64,000 nucleotides of DNA from Escherichia phage vB_EcoM_VR20. Under the pieces are notes generated by a model that was not told where the DNA came from, searched no databases, and saw only the letters and a program-made list of their open reading frames with translations. The stretch lies in sequence record NC_028894.1. One strand, 5' to 3'. Made by a program: the position numbers and the translations under genes. Shown here piece by piece: positions 26,238 through 33,261 of this stretch (its first letter is position 1; the number at the start of each line of letters is the position of its first letter).

Positions 26238-28298
26238 CTACGAAAGGAATTTAGGAGGAATAGCTTCCAAATTAATACAACTAGCAAGAATACCAAGACC
26301 TTGATTGACTTTCTTCGTTACCCCAGAGGATGCAAACGATGCAAAGTCAACAGATTCTACTGGCTCTTCTGTTTCCTCGCCCTGATAAACGACAAGCTCA
26401 CCAGTTTCCATCAACACATCACCATCATAGATAACTGCATTTTCATCCAGTTGGTCCGTAGTCTGGATATCAGCTTCCAGCATTTTGACGTTCGCGTTTC
26501 CTTGATACGAAGCATCAGTAATTTTGGTAATCTTAACTACAGTCCCACGAGGAAGAATAACTTCCTGCTCGGACGGGTTGCTTGACAATTCACCAGGAAC
26601 AATTACGTTAATTAAGTCCGCCCCAGAAATTTTCCAACCAACATGCATCATTACGTGGTCGCGGCGTGCATCCGGCATATCTGGTAAAACAATTTCGTCA
26701 TCAGCCTGGAAAGATGTCCCATCACGATAGTCCTGATGAACTGCAGCCATAGCAACGTTCGCCACCCAGCCACCAAAGATAATCGGTTTAAACGACGTTG
26801 ATACATAGTTCCTGAAATAAAATAATTTAGATTTCTTAATTTTATCAAATGTAGGAACGTTTAAATATTGACCACGCCAAAGAGTTGTATTAGGCGGCAA
26901 CTTATGTCCAATTTCAAAGGCCGAATCCAATTCCTTAATTGTTTCGACAACTCTGTCTAGATTTAGGAATTCAGCTTCTTCTTCATAATATTTGCCCATC
27001 AAATAATTATTAATATCGGCATAGTTTGCTCCACAATAATCTGCAATTGCTTCTCGCTGGCCATAATGGAAACGGTTGTCAGTATACCCTGCTGTGAAAT
27101 TAAGAGTATTTTCTGATGCTTCTTCGGCAAAGTCTTTAACTGCAACACGAATGGCGCTTGTGTATTCTTTTTCCCAGAGCGAGGCTGCATAAGTGGCTGC
27201 ATCCAGGTTAGGAGGAGCATCATTCATTTTTCTTTCGATAAATGCGGCTTTGCGAAGGTTAAGAATCTCTGCACATGATTCGGCAAAAATCTGCATCTGC
27301 TTCATACTGCCAACAGGAGCACGTTTAAGTTCACGATGCATACGGTTAAAAATTGGGTCAGAGTCTTCAATACGAATTTCTTCTTTCCAAACACCATTTG
27401 CTCGCATAGCCGCATCTGCTGCGCGCATACGAGCCATAGTATTCGTTTCGGAAGGTCGAACAAAAATTTCCAGTTCTTCATAATCATCGATAAGTTCTGC
27501 CGTAGCCGGTCGACTAAACTTAGCAGCTTCTGCATCAATTTCGTCCCAGCCATCGGGCACGGAATCACTTGGAGCATACTGGGCTTGTGCAATAGCTCGG
27601 CGACTGATTTTAGTTTTCTGGGCAACAGCAGCATCGGTCTTTTTGTTTGCTGCGTCAATCAGAACTTCGGCTGCGATTTCTTGTTTGGAGACTTGTGCGC
27701 CTGTATCTTTATTAGTGAATACATCGCCAACTTTAGTTTCAACTTTTTGATATTTCTCAGGGACTGGTGGCATACCATCAACCGAAAGCAGGTCAACACC
27801 CTTTTTGTACATAATTACATAAGCGTTCTTTTTACCGAGGCCAGAAGCATTCGGAAGAACATGATAACGCCCGCTGGTTTTCATTTGAATCAGTCGATTC
27901 ATAATACGAATAACAGCTTGGTCTTGCCCTTTCATTTTTTTGGATGGGAAACGGAACAAGACTACATCAGGTTTGCCTAGTTTAATGCTTTCCCAGACTG
28001 TAACAAAAATCAGGTTAATCGCATCAAGAGGTTTTTCACCTAGACCACCCTTCAGAGGAACAGCATGGCCATGTGAAGTCCCGGAGAGCAGGAATACCTC
28101 GGCAATTGCATCGCCGCGTTTATATTGTTTAACTGTTTCTTTGCCCGTGAATTGCATCAAACGGGCCATAAGAGAATTGGTCCCAGGAACACCGAATTGC
28201 CAAACCTGTGGGACCTTGTATTTCGGATTCATATTAATGACAGGATAACCGAAGGCTTCGATATATTTGTCAAAGAGTTCATTTAATTGTTCAGACAT
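26238..28298 (-). CDS. alt: ADP-ribosyltransferase Alt
   Basis: 686 aa against 682 in T4; synteny between 54 and 30. Confidence 0.85.
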   Translation of the reverse strand: MSEQLNELFDKYIEAFGYPVINMNPKYKVPQVWQFGVPGTNSLMARLMQFTGKETVKQYKRGDAIAEVFLLSGTSHGHAVPLKGGLGEKPLDAINLIFVTVWESIKLGKPDVVLFRFPSKKMKGQDQAVIRIMNRLIQMKTSGRYHVLPNASGLGKKNAYVIMYKKGVDLLSVDGMPPVPEKYQKVETKVGDVFTNKDTGAQVSKQEIAAEVLIDAANKKTDAAVAQKTKISRRAIAQAQYAPSDSVPDGWDEIDAEAAKFSRPATAELIDDYEELEIFVRPSETNTMARMRAADAAMRANGVWKEEIRIEDSDPIFNRMHRELKRAPVGSMKQMQIFAESCAEILNLRKAAFIERKMNDAPPNLDAATYAASLWEKEYTSAIRVAVKDFAEEASENTLNFTAGYTDNRFHYGQREAIADYCGANYADINNYLMGKYYEEEAEFLNLDRVVETIKELDSAFEIGHKLPPNTTLWRGQYLNVPTFDKIKKSKLFYFRNYVSTSFKPIIFGGWVANVAMAAVHQDYRDGTSFQADDEIVLPDMPDARRDHVMMHVGWKISGADLINVIVPGELSSNPSEQEVILPRGTVVKITKITDASYQGNANVKMLEADIQTTDQLDENAVIYDGDVLMETGELVVYQGEETEEPVESVDFASFASSGVTKKVNQGLGILASCINLEAIPPKFLS

Positions 28299-29898: not shown

Positions 29899-30180
29899 TT
29901 AGTCGTTGGCTCTATTATATGCCACATCTTCCAAAAGCAAATCCAGACGCTTATGATAAGAGAACACAAATCTCATTCGCCCATCTGGTTTAAACTTAGA
30001 CATAAAGTGAACATAGATAAACCCTTGCTCAACGCATTCACGCCAAACCGGATGGTCTTTGGCTGGGTTAATATCAAACGAGTAATCATGATTCACATGA
30101 CGAATAAACTGATTAACATGGCCATAATCCATGGTAGTAGTAGGACCGTAATCAGAAATAGTATGAACGACAAACATCAA
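29899..30180 (-). CDS. hypothetical protein, 93 aa (30.1 position)
   Basis: ORF and synteny. Confidence 0.6.
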   Translation of the reverse strand: MMFVVHTISDYGPTTTMDYGHVNQFIRHVNHDYSFDINPAKDHPVWRECVEQGFIYVHFMSKFKPDGRMRFVFSYHKRLDLLLEDVAYNRAND

Positions 30181-31001
30181 TTACCCCCTTGGCCACCGGT
30201 CGGTTGATTGTACCAATATTCAATGCCAGTACCTACGCGTGGACCATATTGATATGGATATGCTGGATTATATCCAGGGGTCCATGGTTGACCTGGTTGC
30301 CAGCCTTGCTGCATTTGTTGTTGAAGACGTCGAGTTTCACGAAACAGTTCGTCCAGTTTACGGAGTTCATCAGGGGTGAATTCTGGTTTGACTGGTTCAT
30401 CTTTGTGTTTCAGTTTAAGCTGCCCAGCTACATCGTCCCAATTAAAAACTTTGGAAGCTGTTTTAGGAATAGCATTACGTTCGCCACGGGCCATCCAATA
30501 AACCGGGACTTCAAGGATTTCACTCGCATGGTCGCAATGGTGTGCAAGGTCATCAATATAACAAACGACATTATATTTGGTCTTCGCTTTCTGGAATAAC
30601 TCTTCTTTAGAGGCTGTATGGCCGCACATCATCACTTCTTTAAATGCACCAGGGAACAAAGCATTCAGGTTGAATTGACGATTCAGACGGGCGTCAATGG
30701 AATCACCCAGAGCCGTAACAGCCACAAAATCATATTGCTCTTTGAGGTTATTAATAACCCTTAACGCATCTGCGTAAGGAGACAAATAACGAATAAAATC
30801 TGAACAGTTATATTTCTCAATCAACTGTGCTCCCAACTCTTCATCACAATTGAACAGTTTACCAGGGGTCACAAATTTTTCATCCTGAATCATCTTAAGG
30901 ATATGTTCCAGGGGTAAATTATATTTTTGGGCGAAATAAGGCAAGCCTGACTGCCATGACAAACATACGCCATCAATATCTGTTAAAATAACGGGTTTCA
31001 T
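30177..31001 (-). CDS. HAD-like hydrolase with Q/P/G/Y-rich C-terminal tail (30.2 position)
   Basis: N-terminal LTDIDGV (DxDG) motif; low-complexity last ~50 aa. Confidence 0.65.
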   Translation of the reverse strand: MKPVILTDIDGVCLSWQSGLPYFAQKYNLPLEHILKMIQDEKFVTPGKLFNCDEELGAQLIEKYNCSDFIRYLSPYADALRVINNLKEQYDFVAVTALGDSIDARLNRQFNLNALFPGAFKEVMMCGHTASKEELFQKAKTKYNVVCYIDDLAHHCDHASEILEVPVYWMARGERNAIPKTASKVFNWDDVAGQLKLKHKDEPVKPEFTPDELRKLDELFRETRRLQQQMQQGWQPGQPWTPGYNPAYPYQYGPRVGTGIEYWYNQPTGGQGGN

Positions 31002-31465
31002 AATGCATCTCTCAATTGGTTAAGTATGTCAATAAATTCTTGTTCAGTCAATATTGTATCATGAACAGTAAGGTGGCTCGCCATCGAATGCTTTAAAACT
31101 TTGCCCTTTGTAGCTTGTAATGCGTCGCGGAATCCTTTGTTTTGGAGCGCTGCTTCAAAATATGCATTTGTATACAACTCTTTCCATGATGTAGAGTATC
31201 TTGAAAAGGGAATTCCAAGCCAGAAAAGCGTCCCACGGTCCGCAGCTCTAGCATAAGCTCTTCCACTTTGCTGGGCGGCCAATCCGGACATCCCAAATAT
31301 ACGTTTTTGTTGTTCACAATTTCTCACCTTACACCCTTGCAGGAAGCCTTCAAGACCTCCAAACTGGATGCCCTCCATAACAAAAGGCCATTTAGCAAAG
31401 TTACTTAATGCGCATGATGGCCATGGGAAATTGCTTCTGATTTCTAACTCAGACATCTTTGACAC
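30998..31465 (-). CDS. NADAR/YbiA-like domain protein (30.3 position)
   Basis: LSNFAKWPF...GLEGFLQGCK pattern resembles the YbiA/DUF1768 family; identification by motif only. Confidence 0.6.
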   Translation of the reverse strand: MSKMSELEIRSNFPWPSCALSNFAKWPFVMEGIQFGGLEGFLQGCKVRNCEQQKRIFGMSGLAAQQSGRAYARAADRGTLFWLGIPFSRYSTSWKELYTNAYFEAALQNKGFRDALQATKGKVLKHSMASHLTVHDTILTEQEFIDILNQLRDAL

Positions 31466-33026: not shown

Positions 33027-33057
33027 CATTATGCACTGGACCAACCCTGTTGTAAAC
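33027..33057 (-). promoter_or_regulatory. early promoter GTTTAC-N18-CATAAT with leader CCATACTGAGTTAC
   Basis: Near-identical cassette at 48685..48715. Confidence 0.55.
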
Positions 33058-33075: not shown

Positions 33076-33096
33076 AGGGACTCCGAAGAGTCCCTG
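33076..33096 (-). terminator. terminator hairpin AGGGACTC-TTCG-GAGTCCCT plus T-run
   Basis: Directly after the 53-aa ORF stop. Confidence 0.65.
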
Positions 33097-33099
33097 AAC

Positions 33100-33261
33100 T
33101 TATGCTTTCGGCTTACCAAAGCAAGCTGCATCGGCACGCAATACCGCACGAGCACGAGCCTGAAGTTTATCAGTTACCTGATTGATTCGCTTGTTGGACG
33201 CACGCTTGTAACCAGCGCGTTTGGAGGAGCCATCAACAACTTTAACTTCTTTCTTAGCCAT
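33100..33261 (-). CDS. hypothetical small basic protein, 53 aa
   Basis: Hand-translated MAKKEVKVVDGSSKRAGYKRASNKR...; AAAGAG upstream; terminator right after the stop. Confidence 0.45.
   Translation of the reverse strand: MAKKEVKVVDGSSKRAGYKRASNKRINQVTDKLQARARAVLRADAACFGKPKA

Follow-up and report, generated by a model that had tools for sequence, protein, structure and literature searches.

What does the small gene upstream of DNA ligase contribute to Escherichia phage vB_EcoM_VR20, and against whom, if anyone, is its product directed? In the window, by which we mean the whole 64,000-nucleotide stretch of phage DNA analysed here (NC_028894.1), this gene appears as an open frame on the minus strand at 30998..31465, encoding 155 amino acids if counted from a GTG codon. 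The first-pass annotation had read its product as a NADAR/YbiA-like protein, and had suggested counter-defence or nucleotide-salvage chemistry in view of the nearby ligase and Alt ADP-ribosyltransferase genes. Here, we address the identity of the gene, the family and active site of its product, the integrity of the allele and the role that it may play during infection.

Orthology and gene boundaries

The gene is an intact orthologue of T4 gene 30.3 (adfN). Its product exceeds the gathering threshold of Pfam family PF08010 (Phage_30_3; 214.6 bits, E=5.4e-64, cut-off 36) and aligns without gaps to all 152 residues of T4 gp30.3, with 85% identity and 23 substitutions. At the DNA level the gene and its counterpart 30.3 in Shigella phage SP18 (Gaprivervirus, Tevenvirinae) share 98.3% identity, and the source of the window is an SP18-like Gaprivervirus. 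The gene order, alt, 30 (ligase), 30.1, 30.2, 30.3, 30.4 through 30.9, rIII, 31 and cd, is the standard T-even order, and the succession 30.4-30.3-30.2 upstream of ligase places the gene in the orthologous T-even position. Homologues were detected by tblastn in 1509 of 50,697 phage records, and more than 5500 related protein clusters in a metagenomic database; the matching PHROG family, 652, carries the label 'unknown function'.

The open frame proposed by the first-pass annotation is real, but its start at 31465 is merely the first possible start codon. Translation almost certainly begins at the ATG at 31456 instead, because the equivalent ATG is the annotated 30.3 start in SP18 and T4, because the T4 protein expressed in published work has the same N-terminus, MSELEIRSNF (primer sequences, PMC11257639), as the 152-aa product from ATG 31456, and because this codon overlaps the stop of gene 30.4 by 8 nt. 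We therefore delimit adfN, a phage-type NADAR DNA ADP-ribosylglycohydrolase gene by annotation, as 30998..31456 on the minus strand (152 aa plus stop), and regard the in-frame upstream GTG within the nine extra bases GTG TCA AAG (31457..31465, minus strand) as probably not a real start. The 8-nt overlap, ATGTCTGA (31449..31456, minus strand), contains the adfN start codon and the gene 30.4 stop codon; it is equally present in T4 coordinates and may couple translation of adfN to that of 30.4. At the other end, the adfN stop and the gene 30.2 start share the 4-nt overlap ATGA (30998..31001, minus strand), an arrangement that recurs in T4 and every T-even-type locus. All residue numbers below are counted from ATG 31456.

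Sequence profiles and fold

As a single sequence, the protein has no match to Pfam NADAR (PF08719) even at E<=10 and no PDB match by phmmer, and in NCBIfam and PADLOC it remains below thresholds, with no significant NADAR or DarG match; the NADAR assignment therefore draws on profile and fold evidence. The profile search that the first-pass annotation had proposed thus failed for the isolated sequence and succeeded at the family level. Eighteen of the 90 PF08010-family members match PF08719 individually (best E 3.4e-6), and a profile built from nine family sequences reaches E. coli YbiA (2B3W, E=1.4e-3) in an alignment that places LSNFA on FSNFA, E36 on E48 and K43 on K55. Comparison of the 90-member family alignment with a 41-member YbiA alignment by hhalign gave a probability of 97.1% and E=5.4e-11 over 124 columns.

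The predicted structure points to the same family. An AlphaFold2 model of the window protein (pLDDT 95.9, pTM 0.90) adopts the YbiA/NADAR fold, a helical core with small beta-sheets on either side, and a Foldseek search with this model returned NADAR structures as its sole matches, three entries holding the top ranks. The same fold outcome was given earlier for T4 AdfN by Johannesman et al. (PMC11825919). NADAR membership is established by three independent lines, namely sequence profiles, fold and active site, and PF08010 is demonstrably a separate phage family that forms a branch of NADAR.

The hhalign probability, the fold matches and the presence of E36, K43 and H123 bear out the NADAR/YbiA-like assignment of the first-pass annotation. 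The two sequence blocks on which it drew are both present, LSNFAKWPF as residues 17-25 and GLEGFLQGCK as residues 34-43; structure prediction and catalytic-residue mapping, which it had recommended, yielded NADAR matches exclusively and all three residues; and neither of the outcomes it had named as contrary, a lack of NADAR matches or of catalytic residues, was observed.

Active-site residues

The published catalytic set comprises E43, K50 and E125 in PnNADAR, corresponding to E88, K95 and D171 in the E. coli C7 protein, and in phage gp30.3-type NADARs a histidine replaces the third catalytic Glu/Asp (PMC11543638; PMC11125620). In VR20, the codon GAA at 31349..31351 (minus strand) encodes catalytic Glu36, the counterpart of PnNADAR E43, C7 NADAR E88 and YbiA E48, and the codon AAG at 31328..31330 (minus strand) encodes the catalytic and phosphate-binding Lys43, the counterpart of PnNADAR K50, C7 K95 and YbiA K55. 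Both residues are invariant (84 of 84 loci), and the exchanges E36A and K43A each impair T4 AdfN (PMC11825919).

His123, encoded by CAT at 31088..31090 (minus strand), lies where the last beta-strand ends, directly after strand E120-122 of the AlphaFold2 model. It is invariant in all 83 loci having this region and in all 90 alignment rows. In the hhalign comparison K122 falls opposite YbiA V124, so that H123 would be in line with E125, but a one-residue gap then pairs the histidine with YbiA H126; placement of His123 on the catalytic Glu by sequence is therefore uncertain by one residue.

Integrity of the VR20 allele

The VR20 allele consists of the core domain only, is full length and collinear with T4, and has no N-terminal extension. 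Its C-terminal alpha-helix (residues 138-152; 31001..31045, minus strand) is intact, with the terminal helix 138-151 modelled at high confidence, and is missing from the defective allele of RB69, whose frameshifted gp30.3 ends with residue 137. T4 AdfN cut at the RB69 stop point showed reduced activity (PMC11825919).

Most departures of VR20 from the broad family consensus are common to T4. A private exception is the conservative substitution D28E (codon 31373..31375, minus strand): residue 28 is Asp in 87 of the 89 other members of the family alignment, T4, RB69 and SP18 all carry Asp28, and among 84 loci Glu occurs in the VR20 window alone and Arg in six. By hhalign the position corresponds to an Asp conserved in YbiA, and in the predicted structure it is part of the hairpin turn that joins strands 25-27 and 30-32. 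The prevalence of Asp and the uniqueness of Glu could be taken to mean that D28E, or other differences from T4, weaken or inactivate the enzyme as the frameshift does in RB69. Since the change is conservative and six loci carry Arg, however, loss of function through D28E is unlikely, and we treat this substitution as a caveat rather than as evidence of impairment. Residue 28, moreover, falls in a turn and outside the published catalytic set, and neither the reading frame nor any of the three catalytic residues nor the C-terminal helix is disrupted, so that we give an impaired VR20 allele very little credence.

Probable counter-defence function and proposed mechanism

In T4, gp30.3 was named AdfN, for anti-DarT factor NADAR, and described as a guanine-specific DNA ADP-ribosylglycohydrolase that is both necessary for defeating DarTG1 and sufficient to do so (Johannesman et al., Nat Commun 2025). 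Deletion of adfN renders T4 and T2 about 10^4-fold more sensitive to DarTG1, ectopic AdfN rescues RB69, and AdfN does not bind DarT1 (PMC11257639; PMC11825919). Purified AdfN removes ADP-ribose from DarT1-modified DNA in dot-blots (PMC11825919). In vitro, the T4 NADAR cleaves G-ADPr and not T-ADPr (PMC11125620), and T4 AdfN accepts G-ADPr and not C-ADPr (PMC12945103). In the HIDEN-SEQ transposon screen of T4, all adfN insertions were lost under DarTG1 (bioRxiv 10.1101/2025.11.20.689424). The published phage panel consists of T2, T4, T6, RB69 and Bas35-47, for which the paper gives no genus names (PMC11825919).

The idea of a counter-defence function, raised for the VR20 gene by the first-pass annotation, has thus been demonstrated experimentally for the T4 orthologue (PMC11825919; PMC11125620; bioRxiv 10.1101/2025.11.20.689424), and it is correct but published knowledge rather than new. 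Judging from a Mol Cell paper of 2023 that cites an earlier bioinformatic study, the NADAR class of gp30.3 was in the literature by that year; reports of its in vitro activity followed in 2024 and of its biological role in 2024-2025.

With this background, we consider it highly probable that the Gaprivervirus adfN orthologue encodes a 152-aa single-domain NADAR-fold enzyme that reverses DarT1 DNA ADP-ribosylation. We infer its mechanism in VR20 by orthology, hydrolysis of G-ADPr and the role against DarTG1 having been established by others for T4. In a DarTG1 host, the DarT1 toxin would attach ADP-ribose to N2 of guanines in phage DNA, which would block replication. AdfN, presumably made early from a polycistronic 30.8-to-30 transcript, could then bind the ADP-ribose, with Glu36 contacting the distal ribose and Lys43 the pyrophosphate, and hydrolyse the ribose-guanine bond with His123 replacing the usual acidic residue. 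Release of ADP-ribose would restore unmodified guanine and allow phage DNA replication to proceed, and AdfN may thus be seen as an orphan type IV antitoxin that acts without binding DarT1.

A different source of the lesion would be the phage itself. The window contains a single Alt-type ADP-ribosyltransferase gene next to ligase (686 aa; PF03496, E=2e-19; 26238..28298, minus strand), about 2.7 kb from adfN, and AdfN could in principle erase collateral ADP-ribosylation by the phage's own Alt, ModA or ModB rather than that by host DarT1. However, the order of Alt, ligase and the 30.x genes is generic T-even synteny, and most of the distant gp30.3 homologues have no Alt or ligase neighbours within 3 kb. 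Alt, moreover, targets protein arginines (record annotation), whereas the NADAR activities described in PMC11125620, PMC11543638 and PMC12945103 all act on bases of nucleic acids or nucleotides, and adfN is dispensable in the absence of DarTG1 and essential only on DarTG1 hosts. We regard a function in self-repair as most improbable, and a functional link to ligase and Alt found no support beyond the proximity noted in the first-pass annotation, which reflects conserved T-even order and is missing in most of the distant homologues.

Least probable of all, and scarcely to be expected, is a YbiA-type N-glycosidase whose substrates would be small molecules such as riboflavin-pathway intermediates, or which would serve the nucleotide salvage that had been suggested earlier, given that the riboflavin N-glycosidase model TIGR02464 scores only 12.5 bits (cut-off 73.7), that His takes the place of the YbiA-defining Glu in the last strand, that riboflavin or salvage genes were not found adjacent, and that DNA de-ADP-ribosylation fully explains the phenotype of the T4 orthologue.

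Neighbouring genes and a possible AdfN partner

Removal of ADP-ribose from DarT1-modified DNA, our preferred reading, raises the question of whether AdfN acts by itself. According to published work, full activity of T4 AdfN is confined to infections by T-even phages; experiments with T4-GT7 excluded DNA modification as the cause, and the authors proposed a protein partner encoded by T-even phages (PMC11825919). In VR20, AdfA (gp61.2) and the DNA-modification genes should lie outside the window, judged by SP18 coordinates. The genes that overlap adfN encode gp30.4 (70 aa, 8-nt overlap) and gp30.2 (274 aa, 4-nt overlap). Both proteins are present in RB69, where T4 AdfN works, and the arrangement flanking adfN is kept in all 16 T-even-type loci examined. 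The HIDEN-SEQ text, which we checked for other DarTG1-conditional T4 genes, names adfN alone, a slight argument against a cofactor role for a non-essential neighbour, so that gp30.4 or gp30.2 as the proposed partner is a long shot. Obligate pairing of adfN with 30.2 was considered separately and rejected, a 30.2 homologue being found within 3 kb in just 26 of 84 loci.

Gene 30.2 itself (30177..31001, minus strand), whose start overlaps the adfN stop, encodes invariant motifs resembling those of HAD phosphatases in residues 1-199 (D8xD10, T96, K132/K140 and D150-D151). Its sub-threshold matches are to Pfam HAD_2 (E=0.051) and to a PHROG polynucleotide-kinase family (E~1e-3). A Q/P/G/Y-rich tail makes up the C-terminal ~75 residues, and many homologues align over residues 1-199 alone. 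A profile search of the PDB with gp30.2 found nothing, and its single-sequence AlphaFold2 model (pLDDT 49.7) was unusable. We did not adopt gp30.2 as a HAD phosphatase, for although the arrangement of DxD, T, K and DD agrees with that class, the HAD_2 match reaches only the E-value given above and the PDB profile match is missing.

Inside adfN, a 74-aa ORF in frame +1 (31093..31317, minus strand) is the counterpart of T4 gene 30.3', which the T4 record annotates as 'internal translation in a different reading frame'. Its identity to the T4 version is 61%, compared with 85% for the main frame. Of 17 close relatives, 14 keep the ORF open; it is interrupted in SP18, despite a 98% identical locus, in RB69 and in L009, as well as in 65 of 67 distant homologues. 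These interruptions indicate that 30.3' is probably a chance ORF and make the T4 annotation doubtful; low identity and breakage led us to reject it as a conserved gene.

Upstream, a strong terminator-like hairpin of eight pairs followed by a T-run (33076..33095, minus strand) lies just after gene 30.9 (33100..33261), and a sigma-70-like promoter, TTTACA-17-CATAAT (33028..33056, minus strand; a consensus match only), lies upstream of gene 30.8. Together, these predicted signals suggest that the block from 30.8 to ligase, including adfN, may form one transcription unit. With regard to Alt, SP18, the closest sequenced relative, carries both alta (624 aa) and its paralogue altb (686 aa). VR20 Alt is 32% identical to SP18 alta and is likened to altb by its length of 686 aa alone, and the alta copy thus appears to be absent from the VR20 phage.

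Implications for annotation and host range

The gene deserves the label adfN (anti-DarT factor NADAR; DNA ADP-ribosylglycohydrolase). In SP18 and essentially all related GenBank records among the matches listed, 30.3 is still a 'hypothetical protein'. A 152-aa gp30.3/AdfN homologue of Serratia phage 4S carries the name 'DNA ligase' at NCBI, which is probably an error carried over from neighbouring gene 30. A Gaprivervirus of the VR20 type is predicted to resist DarTG1-carrying hosts, which could bear on host-range prediction and on the design of phage-therapy cocktails.

Comparison with known systems

E. coli YbiA (2B3W; PF08719) shares about 20% identity with VR20 AdfN and differs in that its last strand holds Glu125. 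C-ADPr is a further substrate of YbiA-type enzymes but not of T4 AdfN (PMC12945103). The ybiA gene has a chromosomal context beside dinG, rhlE and ybiB, a LexA-controlled, damage-induced operon (PMC11125620).

DarG1 (E. coli C7; G. lovleyi, PDB 8BAT) is encoded adjacent to DarT1, whereas the neighbours of VR20 adfN, 30.4, 30.2, 30.1 and ligase, include no DarT; the sole PADLOC match was weak and unrelated (Type I specificity subunit, E=0.039), and none of the DarTG models was matched. DarG1 proteins of 219-234 aa have an N-terminal extension that the 152-aa VR20 AdfN lacks, the AlphaFold2 model aligning with 8BAT (219 aa) over 133 residues, and they use a catalytic Asp (C7 D171) where VR20 AdfN has His123. 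T4 AdfN is unable to replace DarG1 in uninfected cells (PMC11825919). By this comparison, VR20 AdfN would work like DarG1, yet it is not a DarG1.

RB69 gp30.3 (NP_861905) has the same synteny and is 85% identical to VR20 AdfN over residues 1-137, but is frameshifted and lacks residues 138-152, whereas the VR20 allele is full length; RB69 is the one DarTG1-sensitive T-even phage (PMC11825919). T4 AdfN (gp30.3, NP_049816) resembles the VR20 protein in its length of 152 aa, its position between 30.4 and 30.2, both gene overlaps, E36/K43/H123 and the C-terminal helix. It differs by the 23 substitutions, among them the VR20-private D28E, and in belonging to a Tequatrovirus rather than a Gaprivervirus. 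With 85% identity to this enzyme, the VR20 allele may be expected to act as T4 AdfN does.
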